Below, piece by piece: positions 5,695-24,391 of a stretch of DNA of 32,000 nucleotides (the first letter of the stretch is position 1; each line of letters starts with the position of its first letter). Origin of the DNA: Candidatus Altimarinota bacterium (lineage in GTDB: Bacteria; Patescibacteriota; Gracilibacteria; UBA1369); contig JBAZYK010000013.1 of assembly GCA_041659405.1 (NCBI GenBank), positions 22,325 to 54,324 on the forward strand, given 5' to 3'. The notes beneath the pieces were generated by a model, which was not told where the DNA came from, ran no database searches, and was given only the letters and a program-made list of their open reading frames with translations. The position numbers and the translations under genes were made by a program.

Positions 5695-5703
5695 GAATCA
5701 AGT

Positions 5704-6381: not shown

Positions 6382-6469
6382 AAAAAAAGGATAAAAAATA
6401 AATTCCGTTAAGTCTTGGACTGTAGGAATCTACTAAGCACCCTACAAAACTCTACCTATTGGCTTGCGC

Positions 6470-6498
6470 ATATTACCTAATATATTCAAATATAACAA
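6470..6498 (-). promoter_or_regulatory. Candidate sigma70-type promoter for the zinc-ribbon/recQ/engB operon
   Basis: Read on the minus strand: TTGTTA (-35, 6498..6493), a 17 nt spacer, then TAATAT (-10, 6475..6470). This predicts a leader of about 80 nt containing the hairpin TGTAGG-N14-CCTACA (6421..6446). Confidence 0.45.
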
Positions 6499-6608
6499 CC
6501 CCATTTTAAAAAACCGCAATTATTAGCCATTATTCCATTTGCGCAAGAGCTCTTTTTAACCTTAGCGGTCATCAAGGCTGAAACCGATTTTAAGCATCAC
6601 CAAAACGC

Positions 6609-6637
6609 TTGCAAATGCAATACAGTTGCATTATGAT
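6609..6637 (+). promoter_or_regulatory. znuA promoter with an embedded palindromic operator (candidate Zur/Fur-family box)
   Basis: TTGCAA (-35, 6609..6614), a 17 nt spacer ATGCAATACAGTTGCAT, then TATGAT (-10, 6632..6637). The perfect inverted repeat AATGCAA-N5-TTGCATT (6614..6632) fills the spacer. The motif TGCAATA-N3-TTGCA also occurs in the znuC promoter spacer. Confidence 0.6.
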
Positions 6638-6669
6638 TGACTCAGTTTTTAACTCTTTTACCGTTCAAA

Positions 6670-7602
6670 ATGAAAAGACACCTCGCGTACATATTTATGA
6701 TCCCTGCTTTACTTTTTGTGGGCTGCGGCCAGCCACAGAATGTGCCCGGAAATTCCTCCACCTTAAAAATCATCACCAGTTTTTATCCAATTTATGAAAT
6801 AGTGAAACAGGTTGGGGGAGCCAATGTAACCATTCAAAATCTTGTTCCGGCAGGCGCGGAACCGCACGACTACGAGCCAACTCCCCAAGAAATTGTGAAT
6901 CTTAATCAGGCTGATTTGGTGGTTTATAATGGAATGGGCCTGGAACCATGGGCGGACAAAATCATCCCCGAGCTTCAGCAAAATGGCTCAAAAACTTTAA
7001 ATCTTTCCGATTATTTTAAAAATAATGCCATTACAAATAGTCCCAAAACACCTGGAGATGCGGAATATCTGCCTTTTGACCCACATTTATGGCTGGATCC
7101 GGTTAATTATCAAAAAGAAGTTCAAACAGTTACGCAAAAATTGGTAGAGATAGATCCAAATCATCAAACAGACTATCAACAAAATTCGCAGAAATTTATT
7201 AAACAACTTCAGGAGTTGGACCTTGCTTACCAAAATGGCTTTAAAAGCTGCAAATTAAACAGTTTTGTCACAAGTCACGCTGCTTTTGCCTATCTTGCCA
7301 ATCGTTATCATCTAAAGATGGTCGCAATTTCCGGCCTTTCCCCCGATGCCGAGCCTTCTTCCAAAGTTATGGCCGAACTGACCAATTTAATCCGGCAAAA
7401 CAACATTCAATATATTCTTACCGAAAGCCTGGTTAGCCCTAAAATTGCCGATACTTTAGCGCAGGAAACAGGCACCAAAACTTTAATTTTAAATCCGTTG
7501 GAGGGATTAACCGACCAGGAAATCGCCAAAGGTAAAAATTACGTGAGTGTGATGCAGGACAATCTTAGGAGTCTGCAAACAGCACTTGAGTGCGGAAATT
7601 AA
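6670..7602 (+). CDS. znuA: Metal (Zn/Mn-type) ABC transporter substrate-binding lipoprotein, ZnuA/TroA family
   Basis: Signal peptide with a lipobox-like LLFVGCG. Family motifs are TSFYPIYEIVKQVGG, LVPAGAEPHDYEPTPQEI, DLVVYNGMGLEPW, DPHLWLDP and SHAAFAYLANRY. There is no His-rich loop, so metal specificity is not certain. The ATG at 6670 is preferred because the track start (6637) falls inside the predicted -10 element. Confidence 0.85.
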   Translation: MKRHLAYIFMIPALLFVGCGQPQNVPGNSSTLKIITSFYPIYEIVKQVGGANVTIQNLVPAGAEPHDYEPTPQEIVNLNQADLVVYNGMGLEPWADKIIPELQQNGSKTLNLSDYFKNNAITNSPKTPGDAEYLPFDPHLWLDPVNYQKEVQTVTQKLVEIDPNHQTDYQQNSQKFIKQLQELDLAYQNGFKSCKLNSFVTSHAAFAYLANRYHLKMVAISGLSPDAEPSSKVMAELTNLIRQNNIQYILTESLVSPKIADTLAQETGTKTLILNPLEGLTDQEIAKGKNYVSVMQDNLRSLQTALECGN

Positions 7603-9650: not shown

Positions 9651-9673
9651 CCCGAGCCAACCGCTTGCCCCAT

Positions 9674-11521
9674 ATGAAAGATCAAATCAACCAGTTTTTA
9701 AAAAATATTACCCGTCGTAAAGGTTTACTCGCTATAATAATTTTGGTGTTGATAGGTATCATTTATTTTGGTTATCAATCAACAAAAGGTGCCGACACTA
9801 CACCTCATTATACCCTTACAGATCTAACCAAAGGGACTTTAGTCGTTTCCATTTCCGGATCCGGACAAGTTATTGCATCAAACCAGTTGGATATAAAACC
9901 GCAAGCTTCAGGTCTAATCACGGCTGTTAATGTTAAACAGGGCGATATAGTAAAATCAGGACAAGTGTTAGCGATTATTGATCAGCGAAGCGCCGCTGCT
10001 TCTGTATTACAATCAAAATCTTCCGTGGCATCGGCTCAGGCAAGCTACAATAAACTGGTTGCAGGCACCACAAGTACAGATCTAAAAGTAAGCCAAACTT
10101 CAGTTGATTCGGCCAAGTCAAGCCTGGATAGCGCGCAAAAAAGTGGAGATATGACCATCATAAGCGCTCAAAATAGTTTAGAAAACGCCAAAAGAAATTA
10201 TGAAAATGTAAAAAATCAACAAGATATAGCTGTCAAAAATGCCCATACGGATTTACTGAATTCATCTTTAGAAGCACTTCCAAGCGATCAAGCTTCAACT
10301 GCAACAGTAGCTATTTCCGGAACTTATGCTGGAACCAAGGAAGGCAGTTTCCAGATCAGAGTTTATAATGGTGGCAACGGCCAATATTATTATTCAATCG
10401 ATCCAAACGGAGCGGCATCGACATCGGCAATTATCACTCCCGGGTTGTCCCAACCACTTGGAGATGGGTTATATATAACTTTTAGTACAGGAACTATCTA
10501 CAGTACAACTTGGACTATCGACCTTCCAAACACCAAAGCTTCTGATTACCTGAGCAATTACAACGCCTACCAAGAAGCTTTACAAAATCAGCCTCAGGCT
10601 TTGGCTACTGCACAAGCTTCTGTTGACTCAGCCCAAATCGCCTTAGATCAGGCCAAACTGCAAGTTCAAAACTCCATTACAAGTGCCCAAAATTCTCTTA
10701 TAACTGCGCAGACAAATTTGGAAGCAAAACAGGTTCCCGCGCTCAAAGAAGATGTTGCTGCCTCACAGGCCCAATTGGATAGTGCCAACGCGCAACTCAT
10801 GATTACCGAAACCAATGCTTCAAATAACATTATTACCGCTCCATTCAGCGGAGAAATCGCCACTGTCAGCATTCAAAAAGGTGACACGGCCAGTTCGGGA
10901 ACTGCCGCCTTTACGCTAATCACTAAAGAGAAAATGGCCCAAATTTCCTTGAACGAAGTTGATATCGCCAAAGTTAAAATTGGCCAAAAAGCCACACTCA
11001 AAATTGATGCACTAAATAGCAATACTTTTGCCGGACAGGTAACATCCATAGATGTTTTAGGAACAGTGACTCAGGGCGTTGTAAATTATAACGTAAAAAT
11101 AGTTTTCCTTGATAACGACGATCGAATTATGCCGGGCATGAGTGTTAGCGCCGGAATAATTACCGATGTTAAACAGGATATTCTGATGGTTCCAAACGCT
11201 GCCGTTAAATCCCAAAATAGTATTAGTTACATAGAAATACTTGATGTTTCAAATCCGGTAAATATCCAAACCTCCGCAGATGAAACAGTAATTTCTAAAA
11301 AGCTACCGGCGCAGGAACAGGTTATCGTTGGCGCAACAAATGACACAAGCACCGAAATTTCCGGAACGAATATTAAAGAAGGTGATCAGGTCATAATTAA
11401 AACTACAGTTGGTAGCAAAGCCGCAACTGGTAGCTCATCCGGTAGTTTGGGTGGTTTAAGAATTCCAGGCGTTAGTGGTGGTGCGGGAGGTAACTTTGGC
11501 GGAGGCGCAAGAGGAAATTAA
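9674..11521 (+). CDS. Efflux-pump periplasmic adaptor (HlyD/MacA family) with an inserted domain in the coiled-coil hairpin and a Gly-rich C-terminus
   Basis: N-terminal TM anchor (LLAIIILVLIGIIYFGY). Lipoyl/barrel-sandwich motifs are GLITAVNVKQGDIVKSGQVLAIID and ITAPFSGEIATVSIQKGD. Long Ala/Gln/Ser heptad regions are present, and a beta-barrel region (GQVTSIDVLGTVTQGVVNYNVKI). It sits directly upstream of MacB-type ATPase and permease genes. The ATG at 9674 (MKDQINQ) is preferred. Confidence 0.8.
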   Translation: MKDQINQFLKNITRRKGLLAIIILVLIGIIYFGYQSTKGADTTPHYTLTDLTKGTLVVSISGSGQVIASNQLDIKPQASGLITAVNVKQGDIVKSGQVLAIIDQRSAAASVLQSKSSVASAQASYNKLVAGTTSTDLKVSQTSVDSAKSSLDSAQKSGDMTIISAQNSLENAKRNYENVKNQQDIAVKNAHTDLLNSSLEALPSDQASTATVAISGTYAGTKEGSFQIRVYNGGNGQYYYSIDPNGAASTSAIITPGLSQPLGDGLYITFSTGTIYSTTWTIDLPNTKASDYLSNYNAYQEALQNQPQALATAQASVDSAQIALDQAKLQVQNSITSAQNSLITAQTNLEAKQVPALKEDVAASQAQLDSANAQLMITETNASNNIITAPFSGEIATVSIQKGDTASSGTAAFTLITKEKMAQISLNEVDIAKVKIGQKATLKIDALNSNTFAGQVTSIDVLGTVTQGVVNYNVKIVFLDNDDRIMPGMSVSAGIITDVKQDILMVPNAAVKSQNSISYIEILDVSNPVNIQTSADETVISKKLPAQEQVIVGATNDTSTEISGTNIKEGDQVIIKTTVGSKAATGSSSGSLGGLRIPGVSGGAGGNFGGGARGN

Positions 11522-11530
11522 GCAATAATC

Positions 11531-12241
11531 ATGATCGAAATTAAAAACATCACCAAAACCTACATAACAGGCGACGTTGAAACACCTGTACTTAAAGGAA
11601 TTTCCTTTACAATTAAAGATGGTGAATTTGTCGCGATTATGGGACCTTCCGGTTCAGGCAAATCAACTCTTATGCATATTTTGGGAGCCTTGGATTCGCC
11701 AACAGGTGGACAATATTTTTTGGATGGACAGGACGTTTCCAAACTTAGTGATGATGAACTTGCCGATATCCGCCGCACCAAAATCGGGTTTGTTTTTCAG
11801 GCTTTTAATCTTTTGCCAAGAGCCACCGTTTTTAGAAATGTGATGTTGCCGCTGATTTATGCCGAAATTCCCGAAAAGGAACGTGAAGAGAAAACTAAAA
11901 AAGCACTACTCGCTGCGGGACTGGATGAAGATCGCTGGTATCACCACTCCAACCAGATTTCCGGTGGACAGATGCAGCGCGTTGCCATTGCCCGTTCACT
12001 TGTAAATAATCCTTCTCTTATTTTAGCTGATGAACCAACAGGTAACCTGGACACCAAAACCGGTGAAGTTGTGATGGGAACTTTTCAGCAGCTGAATGAA
12101 AAACATGGGCATACTATTGTACTTATTACTCATGAACTTAATGTGGCGGAACATGCCGATCGCATTATTCACTTGCGTGATGGAGTCGTCATCGAAGACA
12201 AAAAAAATGGTCACCGAAAATTAATTAATCATCACGCCTAA
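11531..12241 (+). CDS. MacB/LolD-type ABC transporter ATP-binding protein
   Basis: Walker [12 protein letters not shown]-loop [10 protein letters not shown], signature [15 protein letters not shown], Walker [13 protein letters not shown] and H-loop ITHE. Confidence 0.92.
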
Positions 12242-13467
12242 TGTTAATTGCTGATTTAGTCCACGAAACTTATGCGGCTGTCACCGTTAACAAGGTCCGC
12301 ACGGCTTTAACGATTTTAGGAATTGTCATTGGTATTGGCTCGGTAATTGCCATGGTTGCAATTGGCCAGGGTGTTCAAAATTCAATTCAAGCCAGCATTC
12401 AATCAATCGGCTCAAATCTTATTATCGTGACCCCAGGGGCCCAGCGCGGTGCCGGAGTGCAAGTTAGTGCAGGTAGAGGAAGTGCTCAGTCGCTAATCGA
12501 AGATGATGCAACGGCAATTAAAAAAGATATTACTGATGCCTCCGCAGTTGCTCCGGAAATTTCCAAAAGATACCAGGTTACTTCCAAGGGTTTAAACACC
12601 AACACTCAAATCACCGGAACAACACCGGATTATCCCGCTGTTCGCAATGTGGAGATTGATGAAGGTACTTTTATTACCGATCAAAATGTTATCGGTCTGA
12701 ATAAAGTTGCGGTACTTGGACCAACTACCCGTGATGATCTTTTTGGGGTAGGAGCTACAGAGGTGATTGGTCAAACCATTCGCATCAACAAAATGGAATT
12801 TAAGATTATTGGCATCACAAAGGCTAAAGGTGGCAGTGGCTTTAGTAATCCCGATGATGCCATTTACATTCCAATATCAACAGCCAGCCGTTTTTTAGCG
12901 GGAAATAATTATGTGACAACAATTTCAGTACAGTCTAAAGAATCCGCTACTTTAGCTGATGTTCAACAACAAATAACGGATTTACTGCTGCAACGCCACA
13001 AAATTTCCGACCCCCAGTTGGCTGATTTCAGCACGTTAAATCAGGCCGATATTGTGGCTACAGCTTCAACGGTAACCGGCACATTTACAATTTTACTTGC
13101 TGCCATCGCCGCTATTTCTTTGCTCGTTGGCGGTATCGGCATTATGAATATGATGCTTACCACAGTTACCGAAAGAACCCGCGAAATCGGTTTGCGTAAA
13201 GCAATTGGCGCCAAAAAGAATGACATCAGTATTCAGTTTTTGGCAGAATCAATTATGCTCACCTTTTTAGGAGGAATGATTGGCGTGTTTTTAGGGTGGC
13301 TCATTTCTTTTGCCGTGAGCGTGTTCGCCAATATTCCCACCAGTGTTTCTTTATCTTCAGTACTTTTGGCTTTTGGCGTTTCCGCCGGTATCGGCATCGT
13401 TTTTGGATACTATCCGGCACGTCGTGCCGCGGGACTTAATCCAATCGAGGCCTTACGTTACGAATAA
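12241..13467 (+). CDS. MacB/FtsX-family ABC transporter permease with a large extracytoplasmic domain
   Basis: N-terminal TM (RTALTILGIVIGIGSVIAMVAIG) followed by a MacB_PCD-like periplasmic domain. The C-terminal FtsX region carries the conserved REIGLRKAIGAKKNDI and YYPARRAAGLNPIEALRYE. Its start overlaps the ATPase stop (TAATG). Confidence 0.9.
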   Translation: MLIADLVHETYAAVTVNKVRTALTILGIVIGIGSVIAMVAIGQGVQNSIQASIQSIGSNLIIVTPGAQRGAGVQVSAGRGSAQSLIEDDATAIKKDITDASAVAPEISKRYQVTSKGLNTNTQITGTTPDYPAVRNVEIDEGTFITDQNVIGLNKVAVLGPTTRDDLFGVGATEVIGQTIRINKMEFKIIGITKAKGGSGFSNPDDAIYIPISTASRFLAGNNYVTTISVQSKESATLADVQQQITDLLLQRHKISDPQLADFSTLNQADIVATASTVTGTFTILLAAIAAISLLVGGIGIMNMMLTTVTERTREIGLRKAIGAKKNDISIQFLAESIMLTFLGGMIGVFLGWLISFAVSVFANIPTSVSLSSVLLAFGVSAGIGIVFGYYPARRAAGLNPIEALRYE

Positions 13468-13495: not shown

Positions 13496-13981
13496 ATGAA
13501 AAAGATAGTTGTTCCGGTTTTAATTACGGCCGTGGTTGTAGGCGGTTTATCATTCTATGGTGGCATGCAATATCAGCAAAGCACACTTAATGCTCAAAGA
13601 CAGCAAAGAACGGGTAGTTTTGGTGGAGCCGGTGGTATTGGAGCGGCAGGTTTCGGTGGCGCAGCAGGTGTTCGCGGACAAGCCGCCGGCATGATAAATG
13701 GTGACATTATCAGCAGCGACGATAAAAGCATTACTGTAAAAACACGCGATGGTGGCTCTAAAATCGTTTTTTTCTCCGGATCAACCGGCATCACAAAATC
13801 AGTTGATGGTGTTGCAAGTGATTTGGCAACAGGTAAAACGGTAATTGTAAGTGGTACAGCAAATTCAGACGGCAGTGTTACCGCACAAACAATTCAGCTT
13901 CGCCCACAGGCACCTGCAGGCACTCCAAATACAACCTCTCAACAAACTCAAACTGGCGCTTCGGAGCAGACTAAAAAATAA
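13496..13981 (+). CDS. Small membrane-anchored or secreted Gly-rich protein, function unknown
   Basis: N-terminal hydrophobic anchor (KKIVVPVLITAVVVGGLSFYGG), then the Gly/Ala-rich stretch GSFGGAGGIGAAGFGGAAGVRGQAAG, then a beta-rich domain (ITVKTRDGGSKIVFFSG...GKTVIVSGTANSDGSVTAQTIQLR). It is the last gene of the + strand efflux cluster. Confidence 0.6.
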   Translation: MKKIVVPVLITAVVVGGLSFYGGMQYQQSTLNAQRQQRTGSFGGAGGIGAAGFGGAAGVRGQAAGMINGDIISSDDKSITVKTRDGGSKIVFFSGSTGITKSVDGVASDLATGKTVIVSGTANSDGSVTAQTIQLRPQAPAGTPNTTSQQTQTGASEQTKK

Positions 13982-13988
13982 TAAGTTC

Positions 13989-14762
13989 CTAAGTTTTCAA
14001 CCCGGCGCCCTTTTTTAAAAGCACCAGTGCGATTGTTGCCAGTGTTATTGTGAACCCAACCAAAATCGCTGCGCTTACTGCCACATTCACGTCGGAAGCT
14101 CCAAAAAATCCGTAACGGAAACCGTCAATCATATAAAGAACGGGATTTAATCTGGAAAGATTTTGCCAAAAAACCGGCAAGTCTTTGATCGAATAAAAAA
14201 CTCCACCGAAATAGGTCAGGGGAGTCAAAATAAACGTTGGAAAAATACTGATATCATCAAACTTTGTGGCAAAAAGCGCATTAATAAAGCCTGCCAAAGC
14301 AAACAAAATTGAAGTTAAAACAATAAAAGTTATCACAATGCCAAGGTTGTAAATCTCCAAATGCGTAAAAAAAGCCGAAACAATAAAAATAATTATACCA
14401 ACCAGAATTCCCCTAAGCACTCCGCCAATTGTAAAACCGGCTAAGATGATCCAATTTGGCGTGGGGGAGACCATCAGTTCCTCAATATTACGATTGAATT
14501 TAGCGCCAAAAAAAGAACTCACCACGTTGGCAAAAGAACTCGTAATCACCGCCATCATCACCAAACCCGGCACAATGAAAGCCATATAAGGAACACCATG
14601 AATGTTTTTGATCTGTGAGCCAATAAAAGCCCCAAAGATCACAAAATAAAGAGCTTGATTGATCACCGGAGGCAACAAAGTTTGCATCCAGATCCTTAAA
14701 AATCGGACTATTTCTTTTCTGACAATAGTGTAAAAAGCGATCCAGTTATTTTTTAGTATCAT
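13989..14762 (-). CDS. ABC-2 type transporter permease
   Basis: A 257 aa protein with six predicted TM helices, a typical ABC-2 N-terminus (FYTIVRKEIVRFLRIWMQTLLPPVI) and RLNPVLYMIDGFRYG near the C-terminus. It overlaps the upstream ATPase gene by 17 nt. Confidence 0.85.
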   Translation of the reverse strand: MILKNNWIAFYTIVRKEIVRFLRIWMQTLLPPVINQALYFVIFGAFIGSQIKNIHGVPYMAFIVPGLVMMAVITSSFANVVSSFFGAKFNRNIEELMVSPTPNWIILAGFTIGGVLRGILVGIIIFIVSAFFTHLEIYNLGIVITFIVLTSILFALAGFINALFATKFDDISIFPTFILTPLTYFGGVFYSIKDLPVFWQNLSRLNPVLYMIDGFRYGFFGASDVNVAVSAAILVGFTITLATIALVLLKKGAGLKT

Positions 14763-15666
14763 GCGTTTTTAAAATGTTTAAAAATAGCTGCTCCAGGCGG
14801 TTTCCTTTCGGTTTTAAATCCTTAACGGTAATGCCATTTTCATGAAGCAGTGAAACCAGATCCGTCACATTCTGGTTGAGCCCCAAGTCCACTTCCATCG
14901 TCGAATCATCAATAACTTTTAAGTCGAAATCCTGAATTTTGCCCTGACCGATCAGTTTATTCACTGTTACCACATAGGTCTGCTTTTCCAATGAATTTAC
15001 CAGATTTTTCACAGTTCCGCTTTTTACAATTTCACCTTCTTTAATAATTGCCACGGTTTTGCAAAGCTGCTCAGCCTCTTCCAGATAGTGCGTAGTCAAT
15101 AAAATGGTGGTCCCGTTTTTGTTTAGTGCACTCAAATAATTCCACATCTCATGACGGAGTTCCACGTCGACTCCAGCGGTTGGTTCATCCAAAATTAAAA
15201 GTTTTGGCCGATGAACCAAAGCTCTGGCAATCATCAATCTTCGCTTCATCCCGCCGGAAAGTGCTCTTCCAGGTTGCCCGCGCTTATCCCATAAATTCAA
15301 AGCTTTCAAAATATGTGCCGTTTCTTTTAACGCAGTCTGTCGCGGCACACCAAAATATCCGGCCTGTGTTACCACAATATCTTCAACCTTTTCAAAAATA
15401 TTAAAATTAAATTCCTGCGGAACAACACCGATTAACTGTTTGGCCCTATTCAAATCATGATCAAGATCAAACTCATGAATTTTCACCAAACCGGAAGTCT
15501 TGTTCACCAAACCGGTCAGAATGCCAATAATCGTAGTTTTTCCGGCACCATTTGCCCCAAGCAAAGCAAAAAAATCACCCTTCTTTACCTGAAGATTCAC
15601 GCCTTTTAAAGCCAGCGTACCGGTTGAATATTTTTTTGTTAGATTTTCGATTGTGATTGCATTCAT
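14746..15666 (-). CDS. ABC-2 type transporter ATP-binding protein (DrrA/NatA-like)
   Basis: Walker A GANGAGKTT, signature LSGGMKRRLMIARAL, Walker B LLILDEPTAGVD and H-loop LTTHYLEEAE, plus the roughly 90 aa C-terminal regulatory domain usual for this subfamily. Its start overlaps the stop of the upstream RnfD-like gene by 4 nt. Confidence 0.9.
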   Translation of the reverse strand: MNAITIENLTKKYSTGTLALKGVNLQVKKGDFFALLGANGAGKTTIIGILTGLVNKTSGLVKIHEFDLDHDLNRAKQLIGVVPQEFNFNIFEKVEDIVVTQAGYFGVPRQTALKETAHILKALNLWDKRGQPGRALSGGMKRRLMIARALVHRPKLLILDEPTAGVDVELRHEMWNYLSALNKNGTTILLTTHYLEEAEQLCKTVAIIKEGEIVKSGTVKNLVNSLEKQTYVVTVNKLIGQGKIQDFDLKVIDDSTMEVDLGLNQNVTDLVSLLHENGITVKDLKPKGNRLEQLFLNILKTHDTKK

Positions 15667-16421
15667 TTTAGAATTTTTTTCATGGATTTATAATTTATAA
15701 ACGGGACTGTAAGATTAGCCAAAAGTAGGCCACCTGTAAACGAGGCGGCCGGATAAACCTGCAACATCACAAAGGTAAAAAGCGCCGTAAGTACTCCAAA
15801 TTTCATTTGTTGATTTGGGAAAATTGGAGCGGTCTTTGGATCTGTCAGCATAAAGAAAGTAAAAAAGAACGAGATCCCGATATTTAAAAAAAGTTCCTCC
15901 ACAATCACCAAATGATAAAAATATGCCTTATAACAAATTAAAGCCGCAAAAGTTATCAAAAAAGCAAAAATCATTTTCCAGTGGCCCGCGTATTTCATCA
16001 TCAAAATCGCCCCCAGAATAATCGTTATAATATGGCTGTAATCAGCCCACCAGCCCAAAGCTATTTTAAAAAACAGCATACCAATTAAAAGACCAAACGC
16101 CGCCGGATTTAAAACCGACCGTTTATTTATTTGGAAAAGATATTTGGAAATAATCGCCAAAACGGAAATCACGGCAATTGCCACAAGCGAAGAATTCGGC
16201 CCGGCCACCATGCCAATAATTAAGCCTGTAATAATTGCCGATTCTGAAATCTTCCATTTCTTGGTTTTCAAATAATCGGCTATCCCGCTTGTTAAAACCG
16301 CGCAAATTACCGCTACCGCAAGCTGTCCCAAAACACTTTCGTAGCCATAATGATAGCCGGAAATAATTCCTGCTATTAGAAGCAAAATTATGGTCCACTT
16401 TTTTACATTTAAAGTTGGCAT
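15663..16421 (-). CDS. Truncated RnfD/NqrB-family integral membrane protein (lacks the flavinylated loop)
   Basis: A 252 aa polytopic membrane protein. It has family-typical motifs SAIITGLIIG, NKRSVLNPAAFG (compare the FNPA motif) and a C-terminal FFMLTDPKTAP ... LLLANLTVPFINY (compare FFMATDPVT ... LLaN..PLiD in RnfD/NqrB). No (S/T)GAT flavinylation motif is present. Confidence 0.65.
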   Translation of the reverse strand: MPTLNVKKWTIILLLIAGIISGYHYGYESVLGQLAVAVICAVLTSGIADYLKTKKWKISESAIITGLIIGMVAGPNSSLVAIAVISVLAIISKYLFQINKRSVLNPAAFGLLIGMLFFKIALGWWADYSHIITIILGAILMMKYAGHWKMIFAFLITFAALICYKAYFYHLVIVEELFLNIGISFFFTFFMLTDPKTAPIFPNQQMKFGVLTALFTFVMLQVYPAASFTGGLLLANLTVPFINYKSMKKILK

Positions 16422-16435
16422 AAAAGCGAAGTAAA

Positions 16436-17428
16436 TTAAGGTTGGAAATAAGCTCTCATTTTAGGGCTCATGTAGAGCTCATTTTTATTATCTATCAGCA
16501 AACAGGAACAGCCTTCAAATTTTTCTATAAACAAAATAGCACTTTCTACAGGCATAAAAAAGATCGCCGTACTTAAAACGTCGGCCATTTTTGCCGTAGG
16601 TGCAACAACCGTAACGCTGCTAAGTTCATTTTCCTGATTTGGCGAATTAGCCGGATTAGAATTGGCGCGGTTAGCCTGCGGAGCTGCCTGGCTCGCCAGA
16701 TGTGCTGCCGCGTTAACCAGATGCAGCTTTCCTTCATCCGCCAATTTTTCTTTTCTAAAATAATTCCCGGATGTACAAATTGCCGCGTCAATAATATGAA
16801 GAACAGTTATCAGCTTTGTTGGATTTTTGGGATCACGAATGCCAACATCCCAATTTTTTTTATTTGGAGGAGTGCCTTTTACTCTAATGTCACCGCCAGC
16901 TTCAATCATCACGGCAGGCTCTTCAAAGCAGTCCATGGCCAAATCAATCGCCAATCCCTTTATCACACTGTTTAAATCCAAGGCCGCATTTTTTGGGAGT
17001 AGTACCGTCGATTTTTCTTTGTTGACCACGATTTGTTCAAAAGCAGCTAAATCCTCGGAAGTTTTAATTTCGGGAAAACTTTCATAATTCCGCTGAAAAC
17101 CGGGCGTAAACGCGCCAACCAACGGATTAAATGCGCCCTCACTTTTTTCCGCAAAACCCAACGCATAATCCAAAACATCCAAAAACAAAGGCGAAACACT
17201 GGTAACCTCGCCAGCTTTACCGTTTACCAAACAAATTTCCGAATCCGCTTTAAAAAGTGAAAATTGCTTCTCCAGATCCTTAAAAACCATAAAAGCTTTT
17301 TCAACACTTTTCTCCGTTTTTCCACCATTTCCTCCGCCAACGGACTTGTTTTCCCCGGCATCGTTTGAATAAAGAGTGATTGTAACTCTCGTATCCATAC
17401 TGGTTTGCTCAAATATTAGTGGCTGCAT
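16436..17428 (-). CDS. apbE: FAD:protein FMN transferase (ApbE family)
   Basis: ApbE-like blocks are FNPLVGAF, LDLNSVIKGLAIDLAMD, IEAGGDIRVKG, NWDVGIRDP, AICTSGNYFR and VTVVAPTAKMADVLSTAIF. A low-complexity insert (ASQAAPQANRANSNPANSPNQENE) interrupts the region that is normally H-I-I-D-P-x-T-G. No N-terminal signal peptide or lipobox is visible. Confidence 0.75.
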   Translation of the reverse strand: MQPLIFEQTSMDTRVTITLYSNDAGENKSVGGGNGGKTEKSVEKAFMVFKDLEKQFSLFKADSEICLVNGKAGEVTSVSPLFLDVLDYALGFAEKSEGAFNPLVGAFTPGFQRNYESFPEIKTSEDLAAFEQIVVNKEKSTVLLPKNAALDLNSVIKGLAIDLAMDCFEEPAVMIEAGGDIRVKGTPPNKKNWDVGIRDPKNPTKLITVLHIIDAAICTSGNYFRKEKLADEGKLHLVNAAAHLASQAAPQANRANSNPANSPNQENELSSVTVVAPTAKMADVLSTAIFFMPVESAILFIEKFEGCSCLLIDNKNELYMSPKMRAYFQP

Positions 17429-17433
17429 GAAAG

Positions 17434-17982
17434 CTATTTTGATTGTGCAATAATTTGTTTTAAATCATCTCTAAAAGCATCACTTGTATAAGTTGCTCCG
17501 GAAACGCCATCAATTAAATCGTTCTGGGCCTGCATTGCCTGTTTTGCAAGATAAGAAGCTGCATAAATAGAAGGAGGGGAGGCGGGAATTTTAATTGGTT
17601 TAACACTGGTCCATTGCCCATTTTTAACGGTAACTCCAATTGTTAACGTTCCCCATGGAATATCGGAAGATGCCTTATAAACTCCATCTTTATAAGTACC
17701 AAGGCGGGTTATCTTTTGTATGGCGGGCGGAGTATTCACGTTCTGTCCCACAACGGGAGTCGGGATGGTTATTTGTTGCGTGGCAGTCTGAGTATCCACA
17801 TTTTGGTCCGCAATAGCAGCTGCCATCTGATTTTCATTCATTTGATTAATATAAATCCAGAATGCAATGATGACGCTGCCGCTAACAATACTTAAAAACA
17901 TGTTATTTGCCAGCACCTTTTTCAAATTTTCAGAAATAGTCATATAATTTAAAAATATCTCATCCATTTTATGCTCTTTCAC
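17434..17982 (-). CDS. Membrane-anchored FMN-binding domain protein (RnfG/NqrC-like) with a flavinylation motif
   Basis: N-terminal TM anchor (MFLSIVSGSVIIAFWIYI) preceded by KK, which suggests an N-in, C-out topology. The C-terminal FMN_bind-type domain ends in DGVSGATYTSDAF. SGAT (nt 17491..17502) is the consensus ApbE target with the acceptor Thr. The start is either the GTG at 17982 or, more likely, the ATG at 17967. Confidence 0.75.
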   Translation of the reverse strand: MKEHKMDEIFLNYMTISENLKKVLANNMFLSIVSGSVIIAFWIYINQMNENQMAAAIADQNVDTQTATQQITIPTPVVGQNVNTPPAIQKITRLGTYKDGVYKASSDIPWGTLTIGVTVKNGQWTSVKPIKIPASPPSIYAASYLAKQAMQAQNDLIDGVSGATYTSDAFRDDLKQIIAQSK

Positions 17983-18809: not shown

Positions 18810-20057
18810 ATGCTTCAAGAATTTCTCCAACGTTTTAAAGAAAAAGAAAGTGTCATCAATCAATGGCTTGAAGAAAAAAGGAAACTGGTCGGCCCGGAAC
18901 CGCTTTATGCTTCCGTTGATTTACGCAATGCCGGTTTTAAAATTGTTCCGGTGGACACCAATTTATTTCCTGCCGGCTGGAACAACCTCTGCCCTAATTA
19001 CGGCCGCCAAGCCGCAGAATATTTTAAAAATTATTTTGATACTTATTTCCCGGGGACCAAATGTCTGCTGATTATTCCCGAAAATCACACCCGCAATCTT
19101 TATTATTTTTCCAGTCTTAAAAGATTAAAAGACATTTTAGCCGCCTCGGGTTTTGAGGTTAAAATAGGCACTTTAAACCCTGAGCTCACCGAATCGGAAA
19201 ATAAATTTTTGACCCAGGAAAACGAAGAAATTGTTCTTCAAAAAATCACCCGTGAAGGTGACAATCTTTTCGTTGGAGATAAACGCATTTGCCAGGTTGT
19301 TATTAATAATGATTTTTCCGTTGGCATTCCGGAAATCCTTCATGGAGTTAAAGAAAATCTGTTGCCATCACCGGAAATTGGCTGGCACCAGCGCAAAAAG
19401 AGTGACCATTTTGCTTTTTATCACCAGCTGATTCAGGAGTTCGCGGAAGTTATCGGTATTGATTCCTGGTTTTTTGAAAGTCATTATTCTGTTGTGGATG
19501 ATGTTGATTTTGATGATGAGGCGTCGCGTGAAAAAGCGGCCCAAGCCGTTGACGCACTTATCCAAAAAATTGCGGTCGATTATGAGAAACATAAAATTCA
19601 GGGATACCCTTCCGTCTTCATCAAAAACAATGCCGGCACTTATGGAATGGCTGTAATTCGTGTAAATAGTGGCGACGACGTGCGCAAATTAAATCAGCAA
19701 AACCGCAAACAGATGCGAGTGGGAAAGGGAAGCGTTGATATTAAAAGCGTTATTTTGCAGGAAGGCGTGGTTACGGTTGAAAGAATCAAAGACCTCGTTG
19801 CCGAGCCGGTTATATACCTTGTCGGCAATAAATCCGTAGGTGGATTTTACCGTTTGAATGACGAAAAAGGCGATAATGATAATCTGAATTCAAAGGGAAT
19901 GCAGTTTGCAAAATCATGTTTCCACGAAAATATCGGTTACGAAAATTTAGCCGATCCAACTTTGAAGCAGGATGATTTAACGCCTATATATAAGGTTATT
20001 GCCGCCATCGCCAGCCTTGCTTCCGGATATGAACTTAAGGCTTTAAAACAAAAATAA
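18810..20057 (+). CDS. gshA: Probable glutamate--cysteine ligase (small GshA family of the Acidithiobacillus ferrooxidans type)
   Basis: A 415 aa protein. The N-terminal block LYASVDLRNAGFKIVPVDTNLFPAGWNNL resembles my recollection of that GshA family. It lies 13 nt upstream of a clear glutathione synthetase gene. The assignment is from memory plus context, not from a search. Confidence 0.55.
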   Translation: MLQEFLQRFKEKESVINQWLEEKRKLVGPEPLYASVDLRNAGFKIVPVDTNLFPAGWNNLCPNYGRQAAEYFKNYFDTYFPGTKCLLIIPENHTRNLYYFSSLKRLKDILAASGFEVKIGTLNPELTESENKFLTQENEEIVLQKITREGDNLFVGDKRICQVVINNDFSVGIPEILHGVKENLLPSPEIGWHQRKKSDHFAFYHQLIQEFAEVIGIDSWFFESHYSVVDDVDFDDEASREKAAQAVDALIQKIAVDYEKHKIQGYPSVFIKNNAGTYGMAVIRVNSGDDVRKLNQQNRKQMRVGKGSVDIKSVILQEGVVTVERIKDLVAEPVIYLVGNKSVGGFYRLNDEKGDNDNLNSKGMQFAKSCFHENIGYENLADPTLKQDDLTPIYKVIAAIASLASGYELKALKQK

Positions 20058-20070
20058 TCACGCCCAAATT

Positions 20071-21021
20071 ATGAAGCATCTTTTTATTATTGATCCGCTT
20101 TCGGAAATTTTCAAAAAAATTCTGAATGATTCTTCCACGCTTTTAATGCAGGAAGGATTAAAACGCGGTCATGAAATTTACGTTTCCACACTGGATAATC
20201 TGCTTTTAACTTCGCAGTTTTTAAAAGTAAAATGTCAAAAAGTTTTAGCAATCAATGACCAATCCGTTGAATTTGAATCAGCCTACCAACTGGAAGACTG
20301 GCAGGACCAATTTGCTGAAGCCTTTCAGGTTATTTGGCTTCGTAAGAATCCTCCTTTTGATGAAACTTACCTGATGCACCTGGCTCTTTTTGACGGTTTA
20401 ACCGGTTCAAAAGTATTCTTCATCAACAATCCGCAAAGTATTCGTGCACTCAACGAAAAACTCACAATTTTAAATTTCCCCAACGATATTATTGAAACAA
20501 TCGTGACCATGAAGACCTCGGAAATCCATGATTTTTGGCAGCAACATAAGAAGATTGTCGTGAAAGGTTTAACCGGTTTTGGTGGCGATTCGGTAATTTT
20601 AATTGAAGATTGGAAAAAAGATCACCCAAACTTGGAAAAACTTAGTCAGAATGGCAAAAGATTTTTAATGGTTCAGAAGTTTATTGAAAACGTTGTTGAA
20701 GGAGATAAGCGCGTAACCGTCGTAAACGGGAAAATTATTGGGGCTTTGGTTCGGGTTCCTCCGGAAAATTCTTTCATTGCTTATACCGGTGGAGGAGCCA
20801 CGGTTCATCAAACTACACTTTCCATAGAGGAAACAAAACTTGCCGAAAAAGTTGCCAAATTCTTAAAAGAACACGGCATTTTTTGGGCGGGAATTGACCT
20901 GATTGACGGCAATCTTTCGGAAATAAACATCACTTCCCCCAGCATTTTAGCCGCAGCCAATCGCAAATTTGGGCTCAACCTGGAAAATAAAATTTGGAAT
21001 GAACTGGAGTTCCATTTATAA
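20071..21021 (+). CDS. gshB: Glutathione synthetase (prokaryotic ATP-grasp GshB)
   Basis: The N-terminal domain FIIDPLSEIFKKILNDSSTLLMQEGLKRGHEIYV matches the GshB pattern (MDPI..I...KDSS..ML.EA..RGHE). The ATP-grasp C-terminus is EGDKRVTVVNGKIIGALVRVPPENSFIAYTGGGATV...GIFWAGIDLIDGNLSEINITSPS (compare GDKR..vv.G......R.P.....N...GG...G.D.Ig..LtEINVTSPT). Confidence 0.8.
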   Translation: MKHLFIIDPLSEIFKKILNDSSTLLMQEGLKRGHEIYVSTLDNLLLTSQFLKVKCQKVLAINDQSVEFESAYQLEDWQDQFAEAFQVIWLRKNPPFDETYLMHLALFDGLTGSKVFFINNPQSIRALNEKLTILNFPNDIIETIVTMKTSEIHDFWQQHKKIVVKGLTGFGGDSVILIEDWKKDHPNLEKLSQNGKRFLMVQKFIENVVEGDKRVTVVNGKIIGALVRVPPENSFIAYTGGGATVHQTTLSIEETKLAEKVAKFLKEHGIFWAGIDLIDGNLSEINITSPSILAAANRKFGLNLENKIWNELEFHL

Positions 21022-21049
21022 TACCCCCCGATTATTTTAAAATTATCGC

Positions 21050-21520
21050 ATGTCCAAAGAAATCACTTTCAATACCAAAAAATACGTTGAACATGCCCTG
21101 CAAAGCCTTAAGGACAACGGCCTAAAGATCACCGATCCCCGCAAGATGATTGTAAATCTTTTGGCCAAGAGCGAAAAAGCGCTTTCTCCATACGAAATGC
21201 GTGACCTTTTAAAAAAGCAGAAAATTCATGCCGATGTTGTAACCATCTACAGAGTGCTGGAAGTGCTGGAGAAAATGTCACTGGCCCACAAGGTTTTGGC
21301 TGTTAATGGCTATATTCGTTGCAGCACCACCGAAGATGAAACTGCGTGTCATCATTATCTTTTATGCAAAAATTGCCGAAAAGTTGAAGAGGTTGAAGGC
21401 GAGAATCTTCACAGCCTACAGACAAAAATAGCCAAAGATTATAAGTTTGAAATTACGTCACACTATTTGGAATTTACCGGACTCTGCTCCGAATGTTCGC
21501 AAAAGCCAAAGCGCAAATAA
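21050..21520 (+). CDS. zur: Fur-family metalloregulator, probably Zur
   Basis: Winged-helix N-terminus (LKITDPRKMIVNLLAKSEKALSPYEMRDLLKK...DVVTIYRVLEVLEKMSLAHKV). Metal sites are CHHYLLCKNC and a C-terminal CSEC. It is adjacent to znuBC. Zn specificity is inferred from context. Confidence 0.8.
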   Translation: MSKEITFNTKKYVEHALQSLKDNGLKITDPRKMIVNLLAKSEKALSPYEMRDLLKKQKIHADVVTIYRVLEVLEKMSLAHKVLAVNGYIRCSTTEDETACHHYLLCKNCRKVEEVEGENLHSLQTKIAKDYKFEITSHYLEFTGLCSECSQKPKRK

Positions 21521-22289
21521 ACAGGATCAAAGACAAAAATACGATTGCTCCTCCGGCTATCACATCAAAATAGAAGGACAAAATAAGCCCTGCAAAAACG
21601 GCAATCAAAGAAAAGACCGTGGCATAAAGCATAGTTTGCTTGAAGCTTTTGGCTATTTGCAGTGCCGTTAAAACAGGGACCACCATCAAGGCACCAATAA
21701 GCAAAACTCCCACTATACGCATGCTGAGTGAAACCGTAACAGCCGCCAATGACATTAAAAGCAGATTAAGGTTTTTGACCGGAAGTCCGCTTACCTTGGC
21801 CGATTCTTCGTCAAAAGCTATAAAGAAAAGTTCTTTGTAAAATCCAAGTAAAAATACCAGCATCAAAACGCTCAAACTTAACATAATATAAATATCCTGA
21901 GTTTCAACCGCCGTAATACTTCCAAACAAATAACTGAAAAGATTCACATTAAATCCGTGTCCAAAGCTGATCAAAATCAGGGCAACCGCCAAGCTTCCGG
22001 ATAAGAAAAGCGAAAGAGCTGCGTCACCATAAATTTTTTGATTCTCACGCAATTTTTCAATCACAATCGCAGCAATTATGCAGGTAACAACTGCAGTCAA
22101 AATCGGATAAATGCCGCTAATTAAGCCAATCGCCACACCGGCCAAAGCCACATGCGCCAACGAGTCCGCGAACAAAGAAAAGCGACGCATCACCAAAAAT
22201 GTTCCAATCAAAGGTGCAATAACCGCGATCACTCCGCCGGCTATAAACGCCCGGACCATAAAGCTATAATTGAATATTTCGAACATCAT
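21474..22289 (-). CDS. znuB: Metal ABC transporter permease (ZnuB/TroC-D family)
   Basis: A 271 aa polytopic membrane protein with family motifs FMVRAFIAGGVIAVIAPLIGTFLVMRRFSLFADSLAHVALAGVAIG and AFDEESAKVSG. It is downstream of the znuC-like ATPase. Its 3' end overlaps the zur 3' end by 47 nt. Confidence 0.88.
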   Translation of the reverse strand: MMFEIFNYSFMVRAFIAGGVIAVIAPLIGTFLVMRRFSLFADSLAHVALAGVAIGLISGIYPILTAVVTCIIAAIVIEKLRENQKIYGDAALSLFLSGSLAVALILISFGHGFNVNLFSYLFGSITAVETQDIYIMLSLSVLMLVFLLGFYKELFFIAFDEESAKVSGLPVKNLNLLLMSLAAVTVSLSMRIVGVLLIGALMVVPVLTALQIAKSFKQTMLYATVFSLIAVFAGLILSFYFDVIAGGAIVFLSLILFICALAFANIRSRVR

Positions 22290-22313
22290 TTGGAATTCTT
22301 TTAGAATAAATTT

Positions 22314-23105
22314 TTAATGACCGTGAAGCACCATGCGAATATTTTTGCCGTAAAGTTTTTTCAGATAATCGTTTTTCACAAAATATTCAGGATGACCATG
22401 ATAAATCAAAGTCTGGTTGATACAGGCAAAAACGTTTGCCTGACTGGCAATAACATCAATATCGTGTGAAACCAAAACAATTGTCAGACCTTTTTCTTTC
22501 CGCAACTGTTGGAGTAAATCATAAAATTGTTCCTGTGCCTTAATATCAATACCAATAGTTGGTTCATCCAACACCAGCAGTTTTGGATGACTGGAAAGTG
22601 CTCTCGCAATAAAAACCCTTTGCTGCTGACCTCCGGAAAGTTCATGCAACGGGGTGTTTTCATATTTCAACATACCGACATCCTTAAGCGCATTGCGGGA
22701 AATCTCGTAATCTTCTTTTGTTAACGGGTGAAAAAGTCCACGGGTTTGAACGCGGCCCATTGCTACTATTTCACCTACTGTAGCCGGAAAACGTTGGTCA
22801 AAGTGAGTTGCCTTTTGAGAAACATAACCAATCAGATTCCGTTGTTTGAATTTTCTCACGTCAGTCCCAAACAGCGTAACAACGCCTTTTTGCAAAGGTA
22901 AAATCCCCATCATCAATTTTAACAATGTCGATTTTCCGCCACCATTTGGCCCAACCATGCCAATAAAGTCACCCTGCATAATATCAAAATCAATATCGGT
23001 CAAAACGGGTAATCCCTTGCTGTACTCATAACTGACCATTTTTACGCACACCAATGGAGTTTTTTGATCTGCGATTTCAGTATGAGTTTTATGTGTGTGT
23101 GGCAT
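22314..23105 (-). CDS. znuC: Metal ABC transporter ATP-binding protein (ZnuC family)
   Basis: Walker A GPNGGGKSTLLK, signature LSGGQQQRVFIARAL, Walker B LLVLDEPTIGID and H-loop VSHD. The ATG at 23105 (MPHTHKTHTE...) is preferred, because the longer track ORF (to 23156) would begin inside the predicted -35 element. Confidence 0.88.
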   Translation of the reverse strand: MPHTHKTHTEIADQKTPLVCVKMVSYEYSKGLPVLTDIDFDIMQGDFIGMVGPNGGGKSTLLKLMMGILPLQKGVVTLFGTDVRKFKQRNLIGYVSQKATHFDQRFPATVGEIVAMGRVQTRGLFHPLTKEDYEISRNALKDVGMLKYENTPLHELSGGQQQRVFIARALSSHPKLLVLDEPTIGIDIKAQEQFYDLLQQLRKEKGLTIVLVSHDIDVIASQANVFACINQTLIYHGHPEYFVKNDYLKKLYGKNIRMVLHGH

Positions 23106-23127
23106 GCTTATTTTTAGAATTGCCTGT

Positions 23128-23156
23128 ATTCTAATCGCAATATTATTGCAAGTCAA
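23128..23156 (-). promoter_or_regulatory. znuCB promoter with an embedded palindromic operator (candidate Zur box)
   Basis: Read on the minus strand: TTGACT (-35, 23156..23151), a 17 nt spacer TGCAATAATATTGCGAT, then TAGAAT (-10, 23133..23128). The palindrome GCAATA-N-TATTGC lies at 23137..23149. It shares TGCAATA-N3-TTGC(A/G) with the znuA promoter spacer. Confidence 0.6.
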
Positions 23157-23165
23157 TTAAAACCT

Positions 23166-23193
23166 TTAACAAATAATAAAATCGGGCTATGAT
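23166..23193 (+). promoter_or_regulatory. Candidate promoter for the YibE/F gene, divergent from znuCB
   Basis: TTAACA (23166..23171), a 16 nt spacer, then TATGAT (23188..23193), 25 nt upstream of the ATG at 23219. Confidence 0.35.
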
Positions 23194-23218
23194 TTACGCA
23201 CATTATTTATGAATTTCA

Positions 23219-24391
23219 ATGATCACAAATCTTAAAAAAATTTCCATTCTTTTATTGGCGGGTTTTGCCTGTGTTTTTTCAGCGCCATTAACTTCGAATG
23301 CTCAAGCTCAAAATCCAACCAGCAATAGCATTTTTTTTAAGGCCGAAATAGTTCAGGTCGCTAACACTCAAGAAGAAATTGCAGAGGACGGTACCAAAAC
23401 TTACATTCAAACCATAGAATTAAAAGGTCTGGAAAAACCATGGAAAGATCAATTGATCACGGTAAGCAACAGTGAATTCAACACTCTCGGACCCAAAAGT
23501 TATCAAAAAGGCGATGTCATGTTAATGGTCGACAACAAAGACGATAGCGGCAAGGATCATTTTGTAATTGTCGATTTTGTGCGTGAAACGCCACTTTATT
23601 TTTTGGGATTTATTTTTGTTGCCCTGGTTGCGTTGATCGGTAAGAAAAAAGGATTAAAGGCCTTATTCTCTTTATTTTTAAGTTTTCTGGTGATTATTTA
23701 TTTTATGGTTCCGCAAATTGCCGGTGGCTCGGATCCGGTTTTAATTAGTGCGATTGGGGCGATTTTTATTACAATTTTAACGCTTTATCTGACATATGGG
23801 TTTACTTACTTTAGTCACTTGGGAGCGATAAGTGTAATAGCAAGTTTGCTTATAACGGTCATTATGTCGCAGTTTTTTTCGGATTTAACCAAGCTTACCG
23901 GCAAGGCCGAAGAAAGCGTTACATATTTAACACAATTACTAGGTCCAAATTTTAACGCCAGGGGATTATTGCTGGCCGGCTTTATAATTGGCGCATTGGG
24001 TATTTTAGATGATGTGATTATTAACCAGCTTTCTTTAATTGAGGAGCTGCACAAGGCCGATAAAAATCTTTCCTCGTTTGAACTTTTCAAACGTGGTTTA
24101 AAAGTTGGAGTCGATCATATTTCGGCAATCGTGAACACGCTTTTCTTGGCCTACACAGGCGCATCATTGCCGCTACTTTTATTGTTTGTTGCCGATAAAA
24201 GTGTTCAGTACAGTTTTACTTCGGTGATCAATATGGAAATTATCACAACCGAAATTGTGCGCACGTTAACAGGTTCAATTGGGATAGTCCTTTCGGTTCC
24301 AATCAGCACTTTTTTTGCCGCCATTTTTATTCCAATGTTTTTCAAAAAAGGCCACGAGTTAGCTCACAAACATCACACTCACGTGAAGTAA
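23219..24391 (+). CDS. YibE/F-family integral membrane protein
   Basis: A signal peptide or anchor is followed by an extracytoplasmic domain of about 110 aa and then about seven TM helices. The conserved acidic loop GILDDVIINQ and the overall architecture are typical of YibE/F-like proteins. The C-terminus is His-rich (HELAHKHHTHVK). Confidence 0.65.
   Translation: MITNLKKISILLLAGFACVFSAPLTSNAQAQNPTSNSIFFKAEIVQVANTQEEIAEDGTKTYIQTIELKGLEKPWKDQLITVSNSEFNTLGPKSYQKGDVMLMVDNKDDSGKDHFVIVDFVRETPLYFLGFIFVALVALIGKKKGLKALFSLFLSFLVIIYFMVPQIAGGSDPVLISAIGAIFITILTLYLTYGFTYFSHLGAISVIASLLITVIMSQFFSDLTKLTGKAEESVTYLTQLLGPNFNARGLLLAGFIIGALGILDDVIINQLSLIEELHKADKNLSSFELFKRGLKVGVDHISAIVNTLFLAYTGASLPLLLLFVADKSVQYSFTSVINMEIITTEIVRTLTGSIGIVLSVPISTFFAAIFIPMFFKKGHELAHKHHTHVK

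Follow-up and report, generated by a model that had tools for sequence, protein, structure and literature searches.

Five genes packed head to tail on the minus strand of a contig from Candidatus Altimarinota bacterium (JBAZYK010000013.1, of which a stretch of 32,000 nucleotides, hereafter the window, was analyzed) encode a membrane-anchored FMN_bind protein, an ApbE-family flavin transferase, a short membrane protein related to RnfD and NqrB (the RnfD-like or D-like protein), and the ATPase and permease of an ATP-binding cassette (ABC)-2 exporter. The tight same-strand cluster is an ordinary operon, and the question that it raises is which of its genes belong together. The original prediction, made from the DNA alone, had joined all five genes in one module combining the remnant of an Rnf/Nqr complex with an exporter. 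Our analysis points instead to a cassette formed by the first three genes, which probably serves as a minimal path for flavin-based electron transfer through the cytoplasmic membrane and does not have the ABC exporter as a conserved partner. The features of the operon are as follows (FMN, flavin mononucleotide; FAD, flavin adenine dinucleotide).

17434..17982, minus strand: membrane-anchored FMN_bind protein, 182 residues from a GTG start (PF04205, E 4e-7, above cut-off)
17491..17511, minus strand: DGVSGAT, ApbE target motif (D158-T164), with T164 as the predicted FMN attachment site
16436..17428, minus strand: ApbE-family FAD:protein FMN transferase, 330 residues (PF02424, E 5e-47, full length)
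15663..16421, minus strand: short RnfD/NqrB-fold membrane protein, 252 residues (PF03116, E 6e-21, above cut-off)
16047..16052, minus strand: W124-W125, a pair conserved in the RnfD-like protein (family alignment)
14746..15666, minus strand: ABC-2-type ATPase, DrrA/YadG-like (DrrA/NodI-like), 306 residues (PF00005; TIGR01188, E 1e-67)
13989..14762, minus strand: ABC-2 permease of the YadH subfamily, 257 residues (PF01061 ABC2_membrane, E 2e-36; NF011648)

The coordinates of the run (17982..13989) match the open reading frames (ORFs) exactly, and reading of the junction sequences confirmed the gaps of 5 and 14 nucleotides (nt) and the overlaps of 4 and 17 nt that had been described. The 4-nt overlap, AAAATGAATG, places the stop codon of the RnfD-like gene within the start of the ATPase gene. 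Single-frame read-through was found for no adjacent gene pair, and a scan for promoters and terminators between positions 13400 and 18900 gave counts at or under shuffle expectation. Gene callers favor an ATG at 17967, five codons into the FMN_bind gene, which would give a protein of 177 residues. Searches with PF04205, PF02424, and PF03116, the profiles proposed as a check of the three assignments, all returned matches (E values above), and the full-length PF02424 match bears out the ApbE gene between the FMN_bind and RnfD-like genes.

Relatives of the 252-residue protein were surveyed in one genome per species of the GTDB database, which yielded 80 loci. The order FMN_bind, ApbE, short RnfD was identical in about 52 of the 80, and in 52 of 52 loci the stop codon of the ApbE gene lay at most 20 nt from the start of the D-like gene or overlapped it. 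The carriers, mainly Bacillales and Paenibacillales, include Neobacillus, Bacillus altitudinis, Gottfriedia, Ectobacillus, many Paenibacillus, Cohnella, and Terrilactibacillus. The cassette also occurs in Desulfosporosinus, in one Chloroflexota metagenome-assembled genome (MAG), and in one Candidatus Peribacteria MAG, which was the nearest genome of the survey (51% identity). Besides these species loci, it was found in four further metagenomic contexts, apparently from the candidate phyla radiation (CPR). Thus, what had been regarded as an isolated remnant reduced to D and G subunits is a widespread cassette.

Synteny of the five genes as a unit did not hold up in the same way: outside the window's own contigs, only one relative, with an RnfD-like protein 91% identical to that of the window, kept the complete order. 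A YadH-type permease stood beside the cassette only in loci L001, L002, and L086, and about 52 other species loci with the cassette lacked one within 7 kb. The genes that follow the cassette in more distant contexts are listed here, with the identity of the D-like protein to that of the window in brackets.

L003 (57%): cassette, then a NUDIX gene
L006 (51%): cassette, then a 370-residue ORF, deoxyhypusine-synthase-like as judged by eye
L087 (49%): cassette, then opposite-strand genes, with a glutathione S-transferase gene and an orthologous ABC pair 3.8 kb off
L088 (43%): cassette, then unrelated genes
L089 (37%): cassette, then unrelated genes

Because distant cassette loci have other genes downstream, the exporter falls outside the conserved unit. 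We conclude with high confidence that genes 1 to 3 are a self-contained and widely conserved cassette, that this cassette is the unit, and that the ABC pair is an incidental, lineage-specific neighbor, which is co-transcribed with the cassette in this genus.

In L087, the ABC-2 pair (5316-7134) is located behind the glutathione S-transferase gene, and its products are 68% (ATPase) and 72% identical to those of the window.

An alternative that retains all five genes as one system assumes that the ABC-2 exporter supplies the D/G module with a redox substrate or with a flavin, such as FAD for flavinylation outside the cell. It would account for the stop/start overlaps (ATGA and 17 nt), for the five-gene order kept in the relative with the 91% identical protein, and for the ABC pair within 4 kb of the cassette in the relative at 49% identity, and it would provide FAD with a route to an external flavinylation site that is otherwise unexplained. 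We nevertheless consider it improbable. The YadH-type permease is missing within 7 kb in about 52 other species and also in four (L003, L006, L088, and L089) of the five metagenomic contexts of more distant relatives, the ApbE is predicted to be cytoplasmic, where FAD requires no exporter, and the permease matches a conserved subfamily model, NF011648, well above cut-off (381.5 bits for a cut-off of 225). This model is named only 'ABC transporter permease' and corresponds to PRK15066, the YadH of E. coli. The ATPase matches the drrA-type model TIGR01188 (E 1e-67), yet stays under the model's own cut-off. As members of the YadG/YadH type of ABC-2 exporters, the window proteins are ordinary, and only their co-transcription with the cassette is unusual.

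The assignment of the third gene product to the RnfD/NqrB family was supported at the levels of profile, fold, and alignment. The match to PF03116 (NQR2_RnfD_RnfE) reached 75.5 bits for a cut-off of 27.7, and the protein ends 3 residues past it. An AlphaFold2 model obtained with a 33-sequence family alignment contained ten helices (predicted local distance difference test, pLDDT, 90; predicted template-modelling score, pTM, 0.87). Its best Foldseek match was RnfD of Acetobacterium woodii (9eri_D, E 4e-8, TMq 0.80), with further matches to RnfD of Clostridium tetanomorphum (7zc6_D) and to NqrB, including that of Vibrio cholerae (7xk3_B), at TMq values of 0.73 to 0.81 for NqrB. As modelled, the 252-residue protein has a genuine RnfD/NqrB fold. 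The family profile aligned to 7zc6_D in two blocks, positions 11-108 with residues 29-127 and positions 125-249 with residues 183-304. Residues 128-182 of 7zc6_D were skipped, a stretch of about 55 residues in the canonical protein vs about 16 in the short family. Alignment to E. coli RsxD identified the missing stretch as the region of its flavinylation site, GISQAT187, and no [ST]GA[TS] motif is present in the 252-residue protein. Judged by these alignments, the loop that carries the flavinylated threonine of canonical RnfD and NqrB is absent, as had been proposed from the window alone. The blocks SAIITGL, NPA, and FFMLTDPKT...LLLANL are invariant or nearly so in the family alignment. Among the 33 family members, W124 is invariant and W125 nearly invariant, and the pair is located exactly at the junction of the deleted loop. 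We infer that W124-W125 is a candidate docking surface for the FMN of a partner protein.

An exhaustive HMMER search for relatives of the D-like protein gave 415 clusters (50% identity) at E ≤ 1e-30, most of them of 230 to 300 residues. In two of the proteins, P0172 (E 2e-54) and P0245 (E 8e-48), a full-length match to the profile was followed by C-terminal FAD_binding_6 and NAD_binding_1 domains (FNR-type fusion), exactly as in the NQR/RNF-like proteins described in the literature. The short-family profile scored 201 and 179 bits on P0172 and P0245 but no more than 64 bits on any canonical RnfD of known structure, and deletion of the flavinylated loop is present in P0172 too. On the basis of these scores, the D-like protein of the window groups with the FNR-fused proteins and not with canonical RnfD/NqrB. 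Fusions of other kinds were also found. P0211 and P0237 consist of a signal peptide, an FMN_bind domain, a transmembrane (TM) segment, and a short RnfD. P0232 consists of a short RnfD, one TM segment, and a cupredoxin with a CuA-type motif (C-x3-C-x3-H-x2-M). Its gene is located downstream of sdhA and sdhB, the genes overlapping (L091 1508-5158 and L092), and the D-like protein takes the position of the membrane anchor of succinate dehydrogenase. The gene of the D-FNR fusion P0245 is preceded by a cupredoxin gene (L090 3514-5488), that of P0172 is abutted by a ZIP metal transporter gene (L094 4201-6491), and that of the FMN_bind-D fusion P0211 is preceded by three cupredoxin genes and a DsbD_TM gene (L095 2172-6407), with FTR1 and an iron repressor encoded nearby. 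These combinations place the N- and C-termini of the D-like protein inside and the partner domains outside, and they show members of the subfamily time and again connecting a reductase in the cytoplasm with a one-electron carrier outside. The occurrence of members fused to FMN_bind or cupredoxin domains, or encoded in an sdhA-sdhB operon, argues for a modular transmembrane electron conduit.

The same fusions bear on the possibility that the short RnfD is a channel or transporter, for example of flavins, and that the cassette is a system for flavin trafficking and attachment. The RnfD/NqrB fold resembles that of urea and ammonium channels, which were recovered far lower in the Foldseek list (3k3f, probability 0.99; 1u77, probability 0.96), and a cytoplasmic ApbE combined with an exported target suggests that something crosses the membrane. 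A channel is unlikely, however, in a subfamily whose members are joined, by fusion or within operons, to dedicated electron-transfer modules on either side of the membrane (CuA-type cupredoxins, FMN_bind, FNR-type domains, and SdhAB) and that keeps invariant the motifs common to the redox subunits RnfD and NqrB.

Short RnfD genes without an FMN_bind or ApbE neighbor were observed at L031 (7001-8091), L044, L073, L079 (3296-4390), and other loci of Omnitrophota and Planctomycetes. At these loci, the gene is followed by that of a conserved secreted protein of 113 to 115 residues, which has no Pfam hit; an ArsP_1-type permease is encoded upstream, and a regulator that is Rrf2-like by eye downstream. 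In Micrarchaeota, a 168-residue anchored protein precedes the short RnfD.

The FMN_bind protein comprises an N-terminal TM helix (residues ~28-46), a stalk rich in P, Q, and T (~47-92), and the C-terminal FMN_bind domain. Its N-terminus contains K residues and its C-flank is acidic, a distribution of charges that favors an N-in/C-out orientation, and short K-rich N-termini with acidic C-flanks were found in nearly all of the 57 partner FMN_bind proteins. All of these partner proteins (57 of 57) contain the [ST]GA[TS] motif, G162, A163, and T164 are invariant, and T164 aligns with the threonine of TGAT in E. coli RsxG, in keeping with the reading of DGVSGAT as an ApbE target. The nqrC model TIGR01938 scored only 15 bits for a cut-off of 144, and a search of PDB sequences with the ortholog profile gave small stand-alone FMN-binding domains (8p2a and 8p2b) as the nearest matches. 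These comparisons class the protein as RnfG/NqrC-like at the superfamily level only, and as an ortholog of neither RnfG nor NqrC, so the earlier designation stands in the broad sense and fails in the strict one. The orthologs were drawn from the surveyed loci since a word-indexed homolog search gave only 8 matches. The profile search of PDB sequences replaced an AlphaFold2 model, which had a pLDDT of 52 with 8 sequences and was not used.

The length of the linker between the anchor and the FMN_bind domain varies widely, from about 45 residues in the window to about 90 in the Peribacteria MAG, where it consists almost purely of Pro-X repeats (L006 5455-6105). A low-complexity linker of this kind would be well suited to spanning the cell envelope as a long, flexible tether.

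Could the D-like and FMN_bind proteins be remains of a decaying Rnf complex, or spare D and G subunits of a complete Rnf or Nqr complex encoded elsewhere? The label 'RnfD subunit' given by NCBI and JGI speaks for such an origin. It is nonetheless very hard to reconcile with a gene order and invariant motifs that are intact across several phyla, with a D-like protein devoid of the flavinylated loop that canonical complexes need, and with an FMN_bind protein that is not an RnfG or NqrC ortholog. Furthermore, PF03116 was the only Rnf/Nqr Pfam family matched by ORFs of at least 120 residues in the window, in agreement with the initial report that partner genes are missing from the operon, and no further Rnf/Nqr gene was found in the 16.8 kb inspected of the 54-kb contig.

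The ApbE protein matched PF02424 with 161 bits over profile positions 1-265 of 266, and its PDB matches were FAD:protein FMN transferases, the best being 7esa. By its domain, the 330-residue protein is assigned to the ApbE family as a full-length FAD:protein FMN transferase. No signal peptide or lipobox is present, and there is no room for one, since profile position 1 is reached at residue 11 and the ORF is not extendable. The enzyme of the window is accordingly predicted to be cytoplasmic. An N-terminal signal-like segment was found in none of the 53 cassette ApbEs (window and loci L003-L085), even with the longest possible ORF. The FMN_bind proteins that are the predicted targets of these 53 enzymes have an N-in/C-out anchor or a signal peptide. 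The window ApbE also contains a lineage-specific low-complexity insert, AAAHLASQAAPQANRANSNPANSPNQ, at residues ~236-262 (window 16640-16725), which interrupts the domain in the alignment with 7esa; the ApbEs of the relatives are of 278 to 296 residues. In Paenibacillus larvae, an apbE gene is strongly induced (PMC3930689), an observation that could not be linked to the cassette.

The uniform lack of export signals in the 53 ApbEs could also mean that the FMN_bind domain faces the cytoplasm and that the complex is a cytoplasm-facing, membrane-bound flavoprotein. Cytoplasmic ApbEs with cytoplasmic targets are known, for example the enzyme acting on the fumarate reductase of Klebsiella (PMC12052999). 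This orientation appears very unlikely in view of the K-rich N-termini and acidic C-flanks of nearly all 57 partner proteins, of the long P-rich stalks of the CPR members, which are typical of envelope-spanning tethers, and of the cleavable-looking signal peptides that precede FMN_bind in P0211 and P0237.

We therefore return to the cassette as an electron path, a mechanism that we propose with moderate confidence. ApbE would attach FMN to T164 of the 182-residue protein. The tethered FMN domain, located outside the membrane, would dock near W124-W125 on the outward-facing side of the D-like protein, where the loop has been lost. There, the FMN on T164 would exchange electrons with a putative non-covalent flavin inside the D-like protein, and a cytoplasmic reductant would thereby be linked to an extracytoplasmic acceptor. 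The partner of the covalent FMN in NqrB and RnfD is riboflavin. The outside location of the FMN domain is supported by the charge bias of the partner proteins and by the signal peptides ahead of FMN_bind in P0211 and P0237. Docking near W124/W125 fits the published AlphaFold-multimer model of the FNR-fused NQR/RNF-like system, in which the flavinylation site of the G-like subunit is placed at the non-covalent flavin site of the D-like subunit (PMC10979944). A transmembrane electron conduit to an extracytoplasmic FMN, one of the possibilities raised in the original prediction, remains the best reading of the locus once the ABC exporter has been removed from the module.

Several observations weigh against this mechanism. 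A cytoplasmic protein for electron input is neither encoded in the operon nor consistently present near the cassette in the 52 loci. The signal-less state of all 53 ApbEs is at odds with targets predicted to be outside and leaves the flavinylation step topologically unexplained. Finally, in two related genomes translational coupling ties the ABC genes to the cassette, with which they may have a lineage-specific functional link.

A broader view, which we put forward tentatively, is that the short RnfD family is a general plug-in transmembrane wire, that the signal-less ApbE is more than a maturation enzyme, and that the three proteins together make up an electron route. Inputs would be provided by an FNR-type module, SdhAB, or others, and outputs by flavinylated FMN_bind proteins, CuA-type cupredoxins, or small secreted proteins. 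ApbE could then flavinylate the C-terminal tail of its target before export, or form an FAD-bearing cytoplasmic face.

The closest described counterpart of the cassette is the two-subunit NQR/RNF-like system, which is defined by a PF03116-PF00175 fusion and comprises 127 clusters (Meheust et al. 2021, PMC8238504; Huang et al. 2024, PMC10979944/PMC11334425). Both combine an NqrB/RnfD-like membrane domain lacking the flavinylated threonine with a membrane-anchored FMN_bind (C/G-like) subunit. In both, this subunit is encoded next to the D-like protein and carries a flavinylation motif (PF04205 and DGVSGAT in the window; about 52 loci), and by sequence the D-like protein of the window falls into one subfamily with the membrane domain of the FNR-fused proteins. 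In contrast, the window protein has no C-terminal PF00175 domain, and the next gene encodes the ABC ATPase. No PF00175 domain was found in the window, and no NAD(P)H entry module is encoded there. The cassette further differs by its signal-less ApbE, by its frequency in Bacillales and Paenibacillales, and by its presence in CPR. It thus would work like the NQR/RNF-like system and is not a member of it as defined: the other features tested were found, and the PF00175 fusion was not. The survey of flavinylation systems misses the cassette by definition because the latter has no fused NAD-binding domain and a signal-less ApbE. Full-text searches returned no description of the stand-alone cassette, and among the papers found a related system is described only in the two from the Light laboratory (PMC8238504 and PMC10979944). 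The initial claim that the locus matches no described system was thus too strong, since the NQR/RNF-like system uses the same kind of D-like domain (PMC8238504, PMC10979944) and the ABC pair is of the ordinary YadGH type. The D-like, FMN_bind, and ApbE proteins form a conserved and apparently undescribed variant of a flavin-based transmembrane electron system, set apart by having no input module, by ApbEs that uniformly lack a signal peptide, and by occurring in a CPR genome.

The canonical complexes are more distant. The cassette has in common with Rnf (7zc6, 9eri, 8ahx) the RnfD fold with its conserved TGL, K, NPA, and TDPxT motifs. The two further share an FMN_bind subunit that is anchored externally and bears a flavinylation motif, as well as dependence on ApbE. 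The cassette differs by the lack of RnfA/B/C/E in the window, by the absence from the D-like protein of about 55 residues including the covalent-FMN loop, and by an FMN_bind protein that is no ortholog of RnfG. Direct contact between the D and G subunits does not occur in Rnf (PMC10979944). Na+-NQR (7xk3, 8a1x) resembles the cassette in the structure of NqrB and in the pairing of an FMN on the periplasmic side with a flavin inside the B subunit. It differs in that the window has no NqrA/D/E/F and no site of the T236 type, and the D-like protein is of 252 residues vs 415 for NqrB. The flavin-based extracellular electron transfer system of Listeria (FmnB/PplA) shares with the cassette an ApbE-type flavinylation, a small surface-tethered FMN_bind protein, and a monoderm setting. 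Its membrane path relies on the lipoprotein ApbE FmnB, on Ndh2, on quinone, and on EetA/B, and includes no RnfD-like protein.

For the transfer of electrons outside the cell, flavinylated extracytoplasmic proteins are emerging as an alternative to cytochromes. The cassette is common to a Peribacteria/Gracilibacteria-type CPR genome and to dozens of species of Bacillales and Paenibacillales, and flavinylation components have been reported to be strikingly under-represented in CPR (PMC8238504). If it does conduct electrons, the cassette would rank with the smallest known paths of this kind across a membrane. If the short RnfD is in addition a general wire, CPR bacteria with their reduced genomes and many Bacillales would gain a three-protein means of electron export that requires neither quinones, nor haems, nor iron-sulfur clusters. 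The consistent pairing of a cytoplasmic ApbE with a target that is predicted to be exported bears on where and when flavinylation happens. The cassette is directly testable in tractable carriers such as Bacillus altitudinis and Paenibacillus.

The NCBI copy of the RnfD-like protein (MFA5830048.1, labelled Candidatus Gracilibacteria) is of 260 residues, a length equal to that given by read-through of the TGA stop codon under genetic code 25 (window 15639-15666, at the end of the RnfD-like gene). Genetic code 25 was considered and rejected: since 32 long ORFs of the window are uninterrupted under code 11 and only 3 of these end with TGA, the standard code fits, and the C-terminus of the NCBI copy is probably an annotation artefact.

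Next to the cassette, the window encodes gshA, gshB, fur, an ABC-3 metal importer, YibE/F, and ZnuA (18810-24391 and 6637-7602). Metal and redox neighbors of the relatives include ZIP, FTR1, and cupredoxins. These neighbors weakly hint at metal-ion reduction or envelope redox homeostasis, and the region could be a small island for redox and metal homeostasis in a reduced genome. In Bacillales and Paenibacillales, an OmpR-type response regulator and a histidine kinase flank the cassette in 35 of the 52 loci, for example at L017 (7756-8909), L019 (7778-8248), and L023 (2884-5516) in Paenibacillus and Neobacillus. Sporadic neighbors were a His-rich protein with four TM segments (weak DUF6442), a DUF2231 membrane protein, and a rubrerythrin-like (ferritin-like) protein. 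Clustering of neighbors over the 80 loci for a conserved cytoplasmic redox partner gave only the two-component system and such sporadic proteins. In the window, the operon immediately adjoins a set of genes on the opposite strand (9665-13467) that resembles a tripartite efflux system. The set encodes an HlyD-like adaptor, an ABC ATPase of the MacB type, and a permease of the FtsX type and is followed by a gene for a DUF5666-like secreted protein (13496-13981).

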